Shown piece by piece: positions 4,401-37,931 of a stretch of 64,000 nt of DNA. Under the pieces are notes generated by a model. It saw only the letters and a program-made list of their open reading frames with translations, was not told the origin of the DNA and did not search any database. How positions within the stretch are numbered: the first letter of the stretch is position 1; every line of letters begins with the position of its first letter. The DNA is from a virus. Its lineage: Duplodnaviria; Caudoviricetes. The translations under genes were made by a program, and so were the position numbers. The DNA is taken from positions 3,626 through 67,625 of the IMG/VR virus record IMGVR_UViG_3300019459_001231; one strand, given 5' to 3'.

Positions 4401-6449
4401 ATGAAAGTTATTACACATTGGACATTGGCATTTGTAACAGTATTGTTGGTAACTGCATTTCACTACAGCAATAACTTTGTTGTAGAAACTGCACGACTCA
4501 AAAGTTTTGACCTCCTACAACAATACGATGAACCTATACAAAGCAGAGACATCGCTATTGTTGAAATAGATGAACATGCTATTGAAAAATATGGACAATG
4601 GCCCTGGAAGCGTGATGTTCTTGCAGATATAATATGGAAACTCAGAGAAGCAGGTGCTGGCATAATTGTGTTGCCCGTACTGTTTAGTGAATATGATAGA
4701 CTAGGCGGTGACCAAGAACTCTTGGAAGCAATCAATGGCAATGGTGTTGTTATTGCACAGAACGGAAGTTTCAGTGCTAATCGTAATGGTGTTCCTAGAG
4801 GTGTTGCTAAGATAGGTGACCCGCTTCCGTTCTTGTTTGAATGGCAAGGCATGCTAGGTCCAATAGCTGAGTTTGGCGAGTATGCAGATGGTGTTGGCGT
4901 ACTAAACACAGTACCAGAGATAGATGGTGTAGTAAGGCGTTTGCCTATGTTAATGCGTATAGGAGAAGATGTTTATCCTGCACTAGCAATTGAAGTTATA
5001 CGTGTTGCTGTTGGAGAACCCAGCTATCAAGTTAAATCAAATGCAGGCGGCATTGACAAAATGCGTGTACCTGGATATCCTATTATACAAACAGATCCTA
5101 ACGCAAGAATATGGTTGCGCTGGAATAAACAGTTCGAGACTATCAGTGCCGCAGAAGAAGAACATTTTTATATGCTGGCAGGTAAAACTGTTATTATTGG
5201 ACCAAGTGCAGATGGTATTAGCGGTATAATTGCAAGTCCAAAAGGCGGACAATACAACTATATGCCTGCGGCTGTATCGTTACAAAATATTATGGATGGA
5301 GACACAATATCTCGTCCGTATTGGGCATTTATTTTAGAATTAGCCACTACATTTAGTATTGGATTCTTGATCGTTATACTTGGACGCTATTCGCCCTATT
5401 GGCTTGCAGGAATCAGCCTAATTGGATTTGCTGGTGGTATTGTATATGGTGTTTGGTATGCATGGACCAATTACTTGTATCTAATAGATGGCACTATGCC
5501 AATAGTTGCAGTAGTACTGGTTGGCTTACATGCAGTGTTTACAAGATTTGTATTAGAGTTCTTTGAAAAGCAAAAGATCAAAAAACAATTTGCTGGATAT
5601 GCATCACCTACAGTTGTGCGTATGTTACAAGAGAATCCTGCACTTATAAAAGACGGTATGAAGAAAGAAGTTAGCATATGCTTCAGTGACTTACGTGGCT
5701 TTACACCACTAGGAGAAAGTTTTGGTGACGATGTAAAAGGGCTAACAAAGATTATGAATGGCTACATGGATGCCATTACACAACCTGTTCTGGACATGGA
5801 CGGAATGATAATCAAGTATATTGGAGATGCTAGTATGCATGTACACAATGCACCTATAGATGATCCTAATCATCCACGCACCGCTGTGCAGTGTGGTCTA
5901 GACATGCTCAAAGCAGTGGAGAAGTTCAATGATAAAATCACCAGTGAAGGTAGGCCACCTGTTGGTATGGGTGCTGGTATCAATACTGGGCTTGGCTATT
6001 TGGGAGAGATGGGAAGTACACAAAGACACAGTTACGATGTACTTGGAGACTCGGTCAGTACAGCCGCTCGTATTGAAAGCAAGTGTAAAGAATACGGATG
6101 TGTATTACTTGTTGGAGATGCGACATACCAACAAACCAAAGACGACTTCTTCTACCTCAAAGTAGATGACCTTGCTGTAAAAGGAAAAACTGTTGGTATT
6201 GGTATTTGGACTGTGTTGGATGATACAATTCCAGCATGGGCAGCGGCACAACGTAAACATCAACAAATGCACGAAGACTACCAAGCACAACGTTTTGACG
6301 ATGCTATTGCCAAGTGTCGTTTATTGCATGATCACTTTGATCACAAGATGGAAGGCTATTACGACATGTGGATAGAACGCTGTGAATATATGAAAACACA
6401 GGATCTACCCTCTGATTGGAATGGAGTTTTTATTGCAACTACGAAGTAA
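4401..6449 (+). CDS. CHASE2-domain class III adenylate cyclase
   Basis: N-terminal TM, CHASE2 (IDEHAIEKYGQWPWKRD, DGVVRRLP), 3 TM helices, cyclase motifs FSDLRGFT, IKYIGDA, GINTG, YDVLGDSVSTAARIE; ORF track starts at 4362, likely ATG at 4401. Confidence 0.92.
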   Translation: MKVITHWTLAFVTVLLVTAFHYSNNFVVETARLKSFDLLQQYDEPIQSRDIAIVEIDEHAIEKYGQWPWKRDVLADIIWKLREAGAGIIVLPVLFSEYDRLGGDQELLEAINGNGVVIAQNGSFSANRNGVPRGVAKIGDPLPFLFEWQGMLGPIAEFGEYADGVGVLNTVPEIDGVVRRLPMLMRIGEDVYPALAIEVIRVAVGEPSYQVKSNAGGIDKMRVPGYPIIQTDPNARIWLRWNKQFETISAAEEEHFYMLAGKTVIIGPSADGISGIIASPKGGQYNYMPAAVSLQNIMDGDTISRPYWAFILELATTFSIGFLIVILGRYSPYWLAGISLIGFAGGIVYGVWYAWTNYLYLIDGTMPIVAVVLVGLHAVFTRFVLEFFEKQKIKKQFAGYASPTVVRMLQENPALIKDGMKKEVSICFSDLRGFTPLGESFGDDVKGLTKIMNGYMDAITQPVLDMDGMIIKYIGDASMHVHNAPIDDPNHPRTAVQCGLDMLKAVEKFNDKITSEGRPPVGMGAGINTGLGYLGEMGSTQRHSYDVLGDSVSTAARIESKCKEYGCVLLVGDATYQQTKDDFFYLKVDDLAVKGKTVGIGIWTVLDDTIPAWAAAQRKHQQMHEDYQAQRFDDAIAKCRLLHDHFDHKMEGYYDMWIERCEYMKTQDLPSDWNGVFIATTK

Positions 6450-17376: not shown

Positions 17377-17451
17377 ATTTTTTCTCCATATTTGGTCTGC
17401 CCTGTTGGGCCATCATAATAAAAAGTGTACACAATTTCTTGCGTACACCGT

Positions 17452-17459
17452 TATTTATA
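17452..17459 (-). promoter_or_regulatory. T4-late-like promoter TATAAATA upstream of pstS
   Basis: Exact 8-mer. The same 8-mer is also intergenic or at gene junctions on the minus strand at 26393, 32943, 44867, 47742, 55680 and 56944; the CATAAATA variant occurs at 20844 and 57322. Confidence 0.7.
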
Positions 17460-17477
17460 AACTGTGTAGATTACAGT

Positions 17478-17885
17478 TTACAAATCACCGTCTTTTCTAT
17501 TTTCTGAAAAGTATACATCAAAACTGCCGCCTGGATAACGGCTTTCAAGTTTGCGTACATTCTCTGCTACTACTTCATTTGGATCTTCTCCAATAGCACG
17601 ACATGCGTTGACCCAATACCACATGATGTCTCCTAGTTCACGCTTCATGTGAAAGATTGTTTCTTCGTTCATGGGCTTGCCTTGGAATGTACACTTCTTT
17701 ACAATCTCACTAAACTCTCCGCCTTCACTAGCCATACCGATACTAGATGTGAGTAGCAGTGCAGGATTTATACCTTGCTCACTTAGTTCAATCATTCTAC
17801 TGTGCAATGCGCCAAATGCATTGCTTTCACTACTGGTGACTTTTTCTACAAAGTCTTTGTATTTGTTTAAATCTACTTGTGACAT
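17478..17885 (-). CDS. MazG-like nucleotide pyrophosphohydrolase
   Basis: EGGEFSEIVKK and RELGDIMWY motifs. Confidence 0.85.
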   Translation of the reverse strand: MSQVDLNKYKDFVEKVTSSESNAFGALHSRMIELSEQGINPALLLTSSIGMASEGGEFSEIVKKCTFQGKPMNEETIFHMKRELGDIMWYWVNACRAIGEDPNEVVAENVRKLESRYPGGSFDVYFSENRKDGDL

Positions 17886-28395: not shown

Positions 28396-28516
28396 TATTA
28401 TTTTCCTTAAGGTTCTTAAAAAAACAGCTGATTATTCAGCTGTCAAACTATATTTAACACATTCTAGATAAAAATCAAGTCTCTAAAGACATAATTTATA
28501 CAGGTGTAGTAAATAT

Positions 28517-28815
28517 GCAACGATTCTGTTGCTAGGTTCGTTGCCAACCCCCACTTACCTAAATCAGGCAGCTAAAGCCATTTCTGGCGCATAATTATCA
28601 TTTGCAATTATGAATGTTGACCAATAACGCAGTCATCCGGTAAACTCCACTTCACTACAACACCTGTCGATCCTAGTTCAGCCCCATCATAAACACTCTG
28701 CGTCTGTCCTTACTTCTGGGTACCATCAGGTTCTGGTAACTACAGAGTGTTTATGGTGGAGCTGTGGGGTACTGCCCCCCAGTCCAGTATGCGTTCACGT
28801 TGCTTCAACGTTTAC
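28517..28815 (-). ncRNA. ssrA: circularly permuted two-piece tmRNA
   Basis: Minus-strand order: acceptor piece ending GGACTGGGGGGCAGTACCCCACAGCTCCACCA (CCA at 28754), intervening hairpin 28686-28753, coding piece starting GGGGCTGAA (28685). Acceptor stem GGGGCUG/CAGCUCC has G3:U70. Own TTGACA-N17-TATAAA promoter at about 28823-28851. Confidence 0.93.
28564..28605 (-). other. tmRNA tag reading frame ANDNYAPEMALAA*
   Basis: GCA AAT GAT AAT TAT GCG CCA GAA ATG GCT TTA GCT GCC TGA. Confidence 0.92.
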
Positions 28816-28860
28816 AGCTATATTTATACATGGTTTCTATAAGGTTGTCAAGTAAAAAGT

Positions 28861-34447: not shown

Positions 34448-35605
34448 TTAATTTCCAGTCGTTGTACTTTCGTATGTTCGATTGAATTGATTGTGTACTC
34501 TAACAAAAGTTGTACACTTGTTGAGTTGCTTGAGTTTGTTTGCACCAACGTATGTAAGTGTACTGCGCACACCTCCCAGAACATCTTGTAGTGTTACTAC
34601 AACTGGACCACGATATGGTACTAGCACTGTGCGTCCTTCACTGCTACGATAATCTTTTAAACCTTCAAAGTGTTTGTCGTTAGCAGTCTTACTGCTCATA
34701 CCGTAGAACTGTACAAACTTTTTAGTTTCTATAACTTTCTCAAATCTGCCTAGTGTGCCTTGGCTCATTTCATAGTTACGTTCATTTGTTTCGTAATATT
34801 TTGTAATTACTTCACCACCGCCTTCATCGTGCCCAGCAAGCATGCCGCCAAGCATAACAAAATCTGCTCCGCCAGCAAAGGCTTTAGCGACATCTCCAGG
34901 GCAAGTACACCCACCGTCAGCAATAATGTGACCCCCAAGTCCATGTGCTGCATCAGCGCACTCGATGACCGCCGATAACTGCGGGTATCCAACACCAGTT
35001 TGTATGCGAGTAGTGCAAACAGACCCGGGACCAATGCCCACTTTAACAATATCAGCTCCATTTAGTATTAACTCCTGTGTTTGATCTGCGGTAACAACAT
35101 TACCTGCAATGATTACAATGTTAGGATACAGCATTCTAAATTCAGCTACATATTCTATAAAACGTTGACTGTATCCATTTGCTACATCGATGCACACATA
35201 CTTGAGCTTTTCACCAACTTGTTCATAAACTGATCTAAACTTAGTTTGGTCTTCGTCTTTGATGCCAATACTCATAGCAACATTATCTCTGCGGAATGTT
35301 TCTTCGCAGTCGAAGTAGCTAACTAATTCGTTTACACTGTATGTTTTTACTAAACAAGTGAACACTTTAAATTCAGCTAGTCTATCAGCCATTTCAAATG
35401 TGCCAACACCGTCCATGTTACTTGCCATAATAGGAATACCTTCATAATGATATTCATCAGACTCAGGCTGTGCTATATCACGATCATAGTTTGCAAATTG
35501 AAACTTGCGTTCCATTCGTACTTCTTTGCGTGAGCCCAAGGTGCTACGCTTTGGACGAATCAGCACATCACTGTAGTCCAACTTAACTTCATCTTCAATT
35601 CTCAT
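34448..35605 (-). CDS. guaC: GMP reductase
   Basis: [63 protein letters not shown]. Confidence 0.95.
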
Positions 35606-35614
35606 GATTTACCT

Positions 35615-35914
35615 CTATAGTTCTTCAATGTCAAGTGTTAGTGGATAACCTGCTTGTCTACTAACCAAAATGCTTTCATGTACTTTTTGTTCTGCTACTT
35701 CATAATAATACACACCAGCTACACCCTTGCCTTCGTTGTGTATAGCCATTGTGATGCCTTCTGCACTTTGTTGTGTGTGCATGAATATATTTTTAAGTAG
35801 CTCTATTACAAATTCCATTGGTGTTGTATCATCATTGTAAACTATAACTTGATACTGTTTGGGTTTTGCAATGTCTAACTCGTTTGTGGTTTTATCTTCG
35901 AGTTGTGTATCCAT
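35615..35914 (-). CDS. clpS: ATP-dependent Clp protease adaptor
   Basis: YQVIVYNDDTTPMEFV, IHNEGKGVAG, YPL; probable ATG at 35914. Confidence 0.92.
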   Translation of the reverse strand: MDTQLEDKTTNELDIAKPKQYQVIVYNDDTTPMEFVIELLKNIFMHTQQSAEGITMAIHNEGKGVAGVYYYEVAEQKVHESILVSRQAGYPLTLDIEEL

Positions 35915-35962
35915 ATCAATATTTACCGTAAATCGTGGGAGGATTTCTCCCCCCACTTTATT

Positions 35963-36397
35963 TTACTTAATTTTAATTGTACGTGGTTTCTTTTCTTCAG
36001 GAACAATACGCTCTAGTTCAACATAAAGCATACCATTTTCCATTCTTGATCCATTTACAACAATGTCATCACTCAGTGTAAAATTACGCTTGAACTTACG
36101 CTGACTGATGCCTTTGTGAATCCATTGCCAACCTTCTGGCTCTACTTCGCCTTCTGGATTGTGTTCAATTGTAAGCACACCTTCTGCTACAGTAATTTCC
36201 AAATCTTCTTTGGCAATGCCTGCTAGTGCGATTTCAATTTGAAACTTGTCTCCATCTCTTACTATATTGTAAGGTGGATACCCTGTGCTATTGGCATTGT
36301 GTTGTACATACTTGAACATGTCGTCAAATACTCTGTCAAAGCCTACAGCATAAGGAGTGAGTTTGTTAATATCTAAAGTTGTCAATCTATTCATCAT
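35963..36397 (-). CDS. small heat-shock protein Hsp20 (IbpA-like)
   Basis: GYPPYNI, EIALAG, HKGISQRKF, MENGML; AAGGAG RBS before 36397. Confidence 0.95.
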   Translation of the reverse strand: MMNRLTTLDINKLTPYAVGFDRVFDDMFKYVQHNANSTGYPPYNIVRDGDKFQIEIALAGIAKEDLEITVAEGVLTIEHNPEGEVEPEGWQWIHKGISQRKFKRNFTLSDDIVVNGSRMENGMLYVELERIVPEEKKPRTIKIK

Positions 36398-36405
36398 CAC
36401 TCTCC

Positions 36406-36603
36406 TTATACTTTCAATGCCGCTGTGTAAGCAGAGGTCATTGTTTCTGTTGCATCGGCCCAAGTTTTAGCAAACGCTGTGTTTGCATCAGCCATAGCTC
36501 GTACAGGTTTTGTGTACTGCTCGCTTGGATCAATTGTGTTTAGGAAAGTTTTTGTTTGTGTGTGGATTTGGTCCACAAGTCCATTAATATAATTTGCTTG
36601 CAT
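36406..36603 (-). CDS. small helical protein (phasin-like)
   Basis: AAGGAG RBS; late promoter at about 36661-36667; Ala/Thr-rich amphipathic helix. Confidence 0.55.
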   Translation of the reverse strand: MQANYINGLVDQIHTQTKTFLNTIDPSEQYTKPVRAMADANTAFAKTWADATETMTSAYTAALKV

Positions 36604-36668
36604 AGTAATCTCCTTTTAAAGCAAGATTGATTTAGTAGACCCTATTGGCATCTACATGTTTATTTATC

Positions 36669-37116
36669 TAGGGACTAACCGTAGTCCCTAACGTGCGTAT
36701 TACGGCGCAACCCATCTCTGTTTGTGTATTTCTAATTATCCCACTATAGTTCTTGTCTAATGGGTTTCCTTTCTTGTTACAGTTCGGATTAAAGTAACAA
36801 CACAGTTACTTTGAAATACACACTCACTTGTTGCCTTTCGAGCTCTTGTCCTATGCACAGGAAAGTAGGTGCATCTACTCTGGTGTGTATATCAAAACAC
36901 TATGTTAATATGGATAGGAGGGACTCGAGAATACCCTCAACCCAGGTTTACAGTCTCGCTGTCATATACCCAGGAGCCTAGCATCGTACAGTTACGTTCG
37001 AAGTCGCATCTTCATGTCTCCATGCTCATGCGCTGCCACTACAGCTACTAGCCAAGTTCGGGGCCTGTCTACCCCTCTTCCTTGCACTATCTAACTCAGA
37101 CCGTCGTCTTTGTTAT
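36669..37116 (-). ncRNA. unassigned structured non-coding RNA(s)
   Basis: No credible ORF; own sigma70 promoter; many hairpins; terminal 9-bp stem at 36669-36690. Confidence 0.75.
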
Positions 37117-37122
37117 GTACTT

Positions 37123-37151
37123 AATATAGTATAGGTTAACCACAATGTCAA
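37123..37151 (-). promoter_or_regulatory. sigma70 promoter TTGACA-N17-TATATT
   Basis: -35 at 37146-37151, -10 at 37123-37128. Confidence 0.8.
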
Positions 37152-37155
37152 CCTT

Positions 37156-37404
37156 TTATTGCCATTTTTCTTTATTTTTTTCTTGTTCTTTTAACCAACG
37201 CTTACGTGCTTGTGCTTTGGCACGTTTCTTTACTGCACTGGGCTTTTCATAAAAGTCTTTTTTACGCATGTCTTTTGCCATGCCTTCGTTGTTGCATAGC
37301 TTCTTGAGCTTGCGTATTGCACGACTTACATCGTTGTTTCTTACTTCGACATACAAGCCTCGCTTGTTTACTTCGTCTCTATCTTTATATCTGTCTCTAT
37401 TCAT
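37156..37404 (-). CDS. rpsU: 30S ribosomal protein bS21
   Basis: VEVRNNDVSRAIRKLKK...EG...YEKPSAVKKR. Confidence 0.9.
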   Translation of the reverse strand: MNRDRYKDRDEVNKRGLYVEVRNNDVSRAIRKLKKLCNNEGMAKDMRKKDFYEKPSAVKKRAKAQARKRWLKEQEKNKEKWQ

Positions 37405-37931
37405 TCTTTCCTCGTCAATACGCCAATCATTCGATTACCGTTTATAGATGGTTTGGCATCCCAATCACAGTTTTGGATACATTGTATAATACGATCCATT
37501 ATACCAAAACCTTGTTGCTTATTGGCATTTTCTCTGCCTTTAAATCGTATAACACACTTTACCTTGTTACCTTTGTCTAAGAACTTAATAATATTTTTAA
37601 GTTTAGTATCAAAGTCGTGATCACCGATACCTAATCTGAATTGCATCTCTTTGATTACAATTTTACTTTCTCGTTGCTTTTTTGCGGCTTCTTTTTGTTT
37701 ACGTTTTTGTTCGTAGAAATATTTACCAGCATCGAGTAATTTTGCAATTGGTGGATCACTTTTTTCGTTGATCACTACCAAATCTACTTGTTGTCTTTTA
37801 GCCAAGTCAAGTGCTTCATTTTTATACATAACACCTGATTGTCCTTGTTCACCAACCACACGCAATTGTCTGTATGTGATTGATTCGTTAACCTGCTTTA
37901 TAGCAGTGTTGTTCTTCTTAAAGTTCTTCAA
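37401..37931 (-). CDS. infC: translation initiation factor IF-3
   Basis: NESITYRQLRVVG, DLVVI...PPIAKLLDAGKYFYE, IKEMQFR..IGDHD, GNKVKCVIRFKGRE. Confidence 0.93.
   Translation of the reverse strand: MKNFKKNNTAIKQVNESITYRQLRVVGEQGQSGVMYKNEALDLAKRQQVDLVVINEKSDPPIAKLLDAGKYFYEQKRKQKEAAKKQRESKIVIKEMQFRLGIGDHDFDTKLKNIIKFLDKGNKVKCVIRFKGRENANKQQGFGIMDRIIQCIQNCDWDAKPSINGNRMIGVLTRKE

Follow-up and report, generated by a model that had tools for sequence, protein, structure and literature searches.

The RNA known as manA (RF01745) was described from marine phage DNA, where it lies upstream of the chaperone gene ibpA and of nucleotide-synthesis genes, and it was placed among the cis-regulatory RNAs as a probable switch (Weinberg et al. 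2010, PMC2864571). Members of the family other than the one treated here have since been reported to form closed homo-oligomers in vitro via kissing loops, with closed 60-mer icosahedral, decameric and octameric assemblies (Ren et al. 2026, bioRxiv 10.64898/2026.07.01.735769). The other group of RNAs relevant to this locus is that of the ROSE-like thermometers, the hallmark of which is a U(U/C)GCU sequence imperfectly paired to the Shine-Dalgarno sequence with a bulged G (PMC11342760; also PMC4166951). The Rfam family ROSE_3 derives from the two-hairpin thermometers of Pseudomonas ibpA (Krajewski et al. 2013, PMC3669281). In the literature library searched, no paper was found that joins cyanophage, hsp20 and thermometer.

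The window analysed here is a stretch of 64,000 nucleotides that makes up nearly the whole of a 67.6-kb IMG/VR virus record, which is itself estimated to be 23% complete. The non-coding region considered, on the minus strand of the window, represents no new type of RNA: two known kinds are found in it, a manA RNA and a ROSE-like leader, together with small uncatalogued modules. We read it, with a probability of roughly 0.65, as a composite 5' leader of an operon of a 65-aa ORF (ORF65), hsp20, clpS and a guaC-like gene, in which a manA domain, an insert, a ROSE-like thermometer and an internal late promoter would be separable modules.

Genomic setting of the leader

On the minus strand, infC (37401-37931) and the S21 gene rpsU (37156-37404) are followed by a gap of about 550 nt and then by ORF65 (36406-36603, start codon 36603-36601), which begins directly behind the ROSE-like hairpin. 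Downstream lie hsp20 of the Hsp20/alpha-crystallin type (35963-36397), clpS (35615-35956) and the guaC-like gene of the IMPDH/GMP-reductase family (34448-35605). The preliminary description of the locus had spoken of about 450 nt with no credible ORF, and an ORF scan bears this out, as the minus strand has zero ORFs of at least 60 aa from 36604 to 37155.

The Hsp20 of the window is about 40% identical to that of the Pelagibacter phage HTVC008M and to that of T4-like cyanophages, and in HTVC008M S21 is likewise found a short distance upstream of hsp20. In one phage subgroup ORF65 separates the ROSE-like hairpin from hsp20, while the hairpin leads directly to hsp20 in the other subgroups. The protein sequence of ORF65 is kept in relatives; it has no match in Pfam or PHROG, and comparison with the Atlas gave a weak phasin/PHB-like lead and nothing else. 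The gene hsp20 has its own, unmasked Shine-Dalgarno sequence, which overlaps the ORF65 stop codon.

At gathering thresholds, a scan against Rfam reports nothing at the locus, and a blastn search with the leader in 50,697 phage records gives no match. A genome search with RF01745 on the record of the window was likewise empty, which is put down to its loose first filter and not counted as evidence. The sole Rfam match in the window at these thresholds is a permuted, phage-encoded tmRNA of the alphaproteobacterial type elsewhere (28473-28855, minus strand; RF01849, 125.8 bits; tag ANDNYAPEMALAA), which is consistent with an alphaproteobacterial host. Related viral contigs were gathered via Hsp20 and S21; in these, the stretch between the genes is conserved module by module.

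An early promoter behind rpsU

The region opens with a sigma70-type (early) promoter on the minus strand (37123-37151), with the -35 hexamer TTGACA at 37151-37146, a 17-nt spacer and the -10 hexamer TATATT at 37128-37123. It matches the consensus in 11 of 12 positions and is the top site of a 3-kb scan, although the scan as a whole shows no enrichment of promoter-like sites (9 vs 9.2 in shuffles). All 21 related loci retain the two hexamers at this spacing, with a spacer of varying sequence, so the promoter claimed in the preliminary description is not only present but conserved. Transcription is predicted to start at about 37116, a few bases ahead of manA. Between the promoter and ORF65 (37122-36604, minus strand), a consensus scan finds neither a terminator-like site nor a second sigma70-like promoter.

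A diverged manA RNA

In a sensitive Rfam scan (1.2-kb search), manA RF01745 is found on the minus strand at 36908-37111 with 28.5 bits and an E-value of 3.7e-5, covering the full model from 1 to 192. This score falls below the gathering score of the family, which is 55.2 bits. Syntenic manA copies in related viral contigs (n = 15) reach 39 to 75.6 bits, and 6 of the 15 lie above the cut-off; these six (L041, L040, L046, L055, L019 and L057, with 56-75.6 bits) stand behind the same promoter, and the window copy aligns with them over its full length. Our own covariance model of manA (R1), built from an alignment of 17 copies, gives 181.7 bits in the window at 36905-37114. The R1 search finds no second manA in the window, and across the contigs it matches copies in 30 loci, with 142-220 bits for the syntenic copies above the Rfam cut-off. 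A pattern scan for the subtype of the window adds about 80 more loci.

The fold is supported by covariation. RNAalifold on 17 homologues yields 47 consensus pairs, 31 of which show compensatory changes. When 84 copies are aligned by fitting them to the model, 91.6% of the cells are paired, compared with 67.8% in shuffled alignments and 35-48% when the partners are slid, and in this same fitted alignment double changes occur in 36 of the 47 pairs. The structure consists of a 5' hairpin, a closing helix (GATAG/CTATC, 37091-37087/36917-36913), a multi-stem junction and a 3' hairpin, and among its helices are CTAGTA/TGCTAG, GGGG/CCCC, a GNRA-capped hairpin, CGTA/TACG and GAGGG/CCCTC. The whole non-coding region is also more stably folded than its shuffles (z = -2.8). 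The homologue alignment thus contains a conserved, covarying structure, in which every helix named from the single sequence is recovered with compensatory change.

The full-model match, the syntenic homologues above the cut-off and the covariation together identify the segment at 36908-37111, on sequence grounds, as a diverged copy of the known manA RNA of marine phages. The confidence in this identity, and in that of the ROSE-like leader discussed below, is high, and both are judged through chains of homologues and our own models, as in the window itself manA scores below the Rfam cut-off and no Rfam ROSE model reports a match. The boundaries of the Rfam match are also those of the first unit of about 205 nt that had been proposed, and those of a segment missing in one relative (L056). 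What has to be given up is the claim of novelty, as the syntenic homologues above the manA cut-off tie this RNA to a known Rfam family. Where one or two ncRNAs had been suggested, a structured RNA with its own conserved promoter stands, but the 3' half of the region turns out to be the ROSE-like leader of the downstream operon and not a second free ncRNA.

A tRNA-like CCA end had been put forward as a processing site of the first unit. The CCA occurs in the window copy only and is absent in 16 homologues. The supposed T-arm has a loop of 11-12 nt instead of a 7-nt T-loop, and ARAGORN finds no tRNA there. This idea was rejected.

manA as a separable module

The relative L056 is without exactly the manA segment, with promoter, insert and ROSE-like module retained. 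In the window, identities differ between the modules. Its manA (36905-37114) is 92.5% identical to a copy in another genomic context, after a capsid-like gene in L087 (1394-1604), and 69% identical to the copy of the nearest syntenic relative L038 (3291-3498), whereas the promoter, insert and ROSE-like module of the window and L038 are 96-98% identical. This mismatch between manA and its flanks is evidence of cassette replacement by recombination.

The order in L087 is promoter, manA, insert, intrinsic terminator, late-promoter octamer and structural gene. In at least 17 further loci, a strong intrinsic terminator lies no more than about 10 nt behind the same manA subtype, ahead of the late-promoter octamer and the next gene. 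In other loci of the subtype, manA abuts the start codons of gp32, mannose-6-phosphate isomerase, cspA, rubrerythrin and others, and in several the start codon lies 11-23 nt past the closing helix. Four larger partial records have one manA copy each, and the capsid gene of the L087 type is in none of the records searched. The position behind infC and rpsU had been taken to suggest a link to translation, which does not fit the finding that the same type of manA elsewhere precedes such different genes or stands alone.

The modularity, the terminated stand-alone copies and the cages seen in vitro (reported in a preprint) argue against a simple riboswitch of hsp20. We therefore favour a self-contained RNA over an hsp20-specific switch, while the confidence in any specific function of manA is low.

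Several of the free-standing copies have a further neighbour. In L097, L171, L130, L156 and others, the terminator of manA and the late-promoter octamer are followed by a second conserved structured leader (GACUUAUGCGG...CCGCGUAGACC), which precedes a set of related proteins of 117-153 aa, starting with MGRP(L/I)NK, that have been assigned to no known family.

The structured insert and the linker hairpins

Behind manA, a clade-specific structured insert (36800-36905, minus strand) forms a stem of about 17 bp that closes a three-way junction with complementary loops, followed by a hairpin at 36812-36791. The complementary loops are the TGCAC/GTGCA pair that had been noted earlier as a hairpin, and one relative shows a compensatory change between them. 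A few pairs of the insert fold are compensatory; the hairpin AAAGTAAC/GTTACTTT (36812-36791) covaries. No Rfam family matches the insert (36800-36905), and matches of our own model of it (R3) are confined to the clade of the window and the locus of L087 type. A pattern search returned the same clade plus one other context and no more. The insert is precisely absent in L043, L064 and L057, while L056 has it but lacks manA. The idea of a repeated or mobile element was rejected, as the window contains one copy of the insert and about 80 other manA loci contain none.

Two small linker hairpins follow on the minus strand (36788-36767 and 36764-36740), the second of which has the loop GAYAAGAA. Hairpins with this loop are found in all the hsp20 leaders, those of L019, L040, L042, L053 and L055 among them, with one to four per leader, and a protein or an RNA might bind to them.

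A ROSE-like leader before ORF65 and hsp20

The last part of the region is a ROSE-like leader of about 125 nt (36598-36724, minus strand) with four hairpins: A (36709-36694), B (36691-36668), C (36655-36635) and D (36628-36607). In hairpin D the sequence UUGCU (36624-36620, with the bulged G at 36622) pairs with the Shine-Dalgarno sequence AGGAG (36614-36610). The site masked in this way is that of ORF65 and not that of hsp20. The four hairpins come from an alignment of 17 leaders. Our own ROSE model (R2) scores 125 bits in the window and finds the module in 57 loci. Of the aligned cells, 98.3% are paired, compared with 84% in shuffles. Helices A, B and C covary, among them hairpin B (36691-36668), which had been listed as a terminal 9-bp stem. 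The Shine-Dalgarno helix D is invariant, and since it never varies, covariation cannot support it. The 3' limit of the locus had been set at 36669, which cuts off two conserved hairpins (36655-36607) including the one that holds the Shine-Dalgarno sequence.

In every distinct locus found, the module lies directly before the start of hsp20 or before ORF65 followed by hsp20, with dnaK in this place in L069. There, a two-hairpin ROSE-like leader (5507-5626, R2 39.7 bits) stands directly before a DnaK-like gene, the product of which starts with MGKVIGIDLGTTNS; phages would thus use ROSE-like leaders on chaperones besides hsp20. Among cultured phages, Syn33, P-SSM3 and Mosig EXVC030M also have the two-hairpin core ahead of their hsp20.

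A comparison of the window with the Rfam families ROSE, ROSE_2 and ROSE_3 reported no match even at E-values up to 10. Homologues of the leader score 34.8-35.3 bits against ROSE_3, below the cut-off of 43, and share with it the GAUGCC...GGGUC core of its first hairpin. By calculation, hairpin D is marginally stable and weakens with temperature, from -8.3 kcal/mol at 10 °C to -6.3 kcal/mol at 20 °C and -2.9 kcal/mol at 37 °C. We have moderate confidence that the leader may sense temperature in this phage of the cold ocean.

A late-promoter-like octamer within the leader

Between hairpins B and C lies an octamer resembling a late promoter of the T4 type (GATAAATA, 36661-36668, minus strand), which is nearly invariant in relatives. 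ATAAATA, the core of T4-type late promoters, is kept in at least 90% of the sequences, and in more distant loci a sigma70-type promoter is found at the place of the octamer. In the window, exact TATAAATA octamers lie on the minus strand, the main coding strand, in nine of ten cases, which fits the use of T4-type late promoters. Late genes that lie behind free-standing manA copies are preceded by this octamer too. It can be regarded as a candidate late promoter, and a short transcript starting at hairpin C would correspond to the two-hairpin form of ROSE.

Another of these octamers is found upstream of pstS (17452-17459), where the hairpin next to it gave a spurious weak R2 match. This stretch (17384-17497, R2 19 bits) was considered as a second ROSE-like element and rejected, since it consists of an octamer and a hairpin with no UYGCU/Shine-Dalgarno pairing.

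A model of expression and its alternatives

In the composite leader proposed here, the conserved early promoter of the host sigma70 type would fire just past rpsU. The 5' part of the transcript would be the manA-family RNA, a self-contained folded domain that phages put directly behind such promoters in many contexts, and which may be read as a modular stable RNA, a particle or a scaffold that possibly assembles with itself as in vitro. The clade-specific insert and the small hairpins with GAYAAGAA loops would come next. The last 125 nt would act as a ROSE-like thermometer, with a marginally stable final hairpin in which UUGCU pairs with the Shine-Dalgarno sequence around the bulged G. Such a hairpin implies that translation of ORF65, and through or alongside ORF65 that of hsp20, would be repressed at low temperature and set free when warming or another influence destabilises the hairpin. 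From the octamer inside the module, a second and short transcript carrying only the two-hairpin thermometer may be made late in infection.

The early transcript is taken to be one long leader, as neither a terminator nor a second sigma70-type promoter was detected and as hairpins A and B and the linker hairpins, which lie between the insert and the octamer and covary, must be transcribed from the same upstream promoter. Confidence in this single long leader is moderate, and cleavage or termination behind manA might occur by means invisible to a consensus scan. A bolder extension of the model is that manA RNAs are exchangeable cassettes of promoter and RNA that make self-assembling early RNA particles, and not riboswitches, with the fused domain tethering, concentrating or protecting the chaperone mRNA. 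Swapping of copies between loci would explain why the window copy matches the capsid-side copy better than its syntenic counterpart. This extension is speculative, and we consider it rather unlikely.

Of comparable low probability is a reading in which manA, with or without the insert, is a free ncRNA released by processing or by unrecognised termination, so that the operon would be expressed only from the internal octamer at 36668-36661. The conservation of this octamer fits such an arrangement, as do the units of promoter, manA and terminator that are common for the subtype, the one locus in which promoter, manA, insert and terminator follow each other, and the cages formed in vitro, which imply a free RNA. 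Among the 30 rpsU-hsp20 loci, however, none has a terminator after manA or the insert, and the covarying hairpins ahead of the octamer would be left without the upstream transcription that they need. A yet less probable view is the classical one of Weinberg et al. (2010), according to which manA would be a metabolite aptamer controlling the hsp20 operon in cis and in tandem with the thermometer. Besides the original classification (PMC2864571), it can draw on the geometry of other loci, as a start codon 11-23 nt after the closing helix or a terminator within about 10 nt is typical of expression platforms, and on the orientation of the window manA, which is that of the operon and has no terminator ahead of the operon. 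The Shine-Dalgarno sequence of the window, though, is about 300 nt away and already masked locally, and the analysis found neither a terminator nor an alternative helix that overlaps. The downstream genes (hsp20, gp32, cspA, rubrerythrin, the isomerase and structural genes) are so mixed that no common metabolite suggests itself, and where a terminator does follow manA, the gene behind it has its own late-promoter octamer. The locus L056 drops manA and is otherwise unchanged. In 16 years no report of a ligand has appeared, and the assemblies formed in vitro point to a function of a different sort.

That the region does not function as RNA at all, and instead holds small ORFs or an element that acts as DNA, for instance in packaging or replication, deserves hardly any credence. 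There are indeed short minus-strand ORFs of 31-33 aa at 36757-36858 and 36992-37087, but the substitutions are compensatory in helices and not codon-patterned, and wherever the modules recur in unrelated parts of genomes, they stand behind a promoter and are oriented for transcription. The composite leader of separable modules is the reading which we retain.

Significance

Taken alone, the result is a correction of annotation, with a diverged manA below the Rfam threshold and a ROSE-like leader. It also strengthens the case that manA, for years listed among the orphan candidates for riboswitches, is in its behaviour a portable RNA gene close to a promoter; the immediate termination of many copies fits the cage structures seen in vitro better than a metabolite switch. 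For hsp20 of marine T4-like phages, including cultured ones, ROSE-type leaders that mask the Shine-Dalgarno sequence are standard equipment. The alignments and models for the manA subtype and for the four-hairpin phage form of ROSE could improve the Rfam seeds. If the reading of manA as cassette and particle were true, the locus would provide a natural mRNA in which the subunit of an RNA cage stands in tandem with a thermometer.

Comparison with known systems

The behaviour of manA invites comparison with the large bacterial and phage RNAs ROOL and GOLLD, which are likewise phage-associated and highly structured and for which closed homo-oligomers have been reported in vitro (bioRxiv 10.1101/2024.12.08.627333). 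manA is much shorter, and the analogy is one of behaviour alone.

Compared with manA RF01745 as described, the window copy is a diverged subtype with the core AGUGCAAGGAA and reaches 28.5 bits only. It is separated from its gene by about 300 nt with other RNA modules in between, and its subtype is often a free-standing gene with promoter and terminator. The full-length alignment to the model, the closing helix, the multi-stem junction, the origin from marine phage and the promoter-proximal position are shared. The documented neighbours of manA, ibpA/hsp20 and genes of nucleotide metabolism, also have their counterparts in the window, where hsp20 and a gene of the GMP-reductase family lie downstream.

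The ROSE-like leader differs from the bacterial ROSE elements in being phage-borne, in scoring below the Rfam cut-offs and in masking the site of a 65-aa ORF ahead of hsp20. Its hairpins B and C are, moreover, separated by a late-promoter-like octamer, and it ends a leader of about 510 nt instead of following a sigma32 promoter. With the ROSE_3 of Pseudomonas ibpA (RF02523) and the four-hairpin ROSE of rhizobia it shares the Shine-Dalgarno pairing with a bulged G, an architecture of two to four hairpins and a small heat-shock gene as its neighbour, and with ROSE_3 in addition the preceding hairpin with its GAUGCC...GGGUC core.
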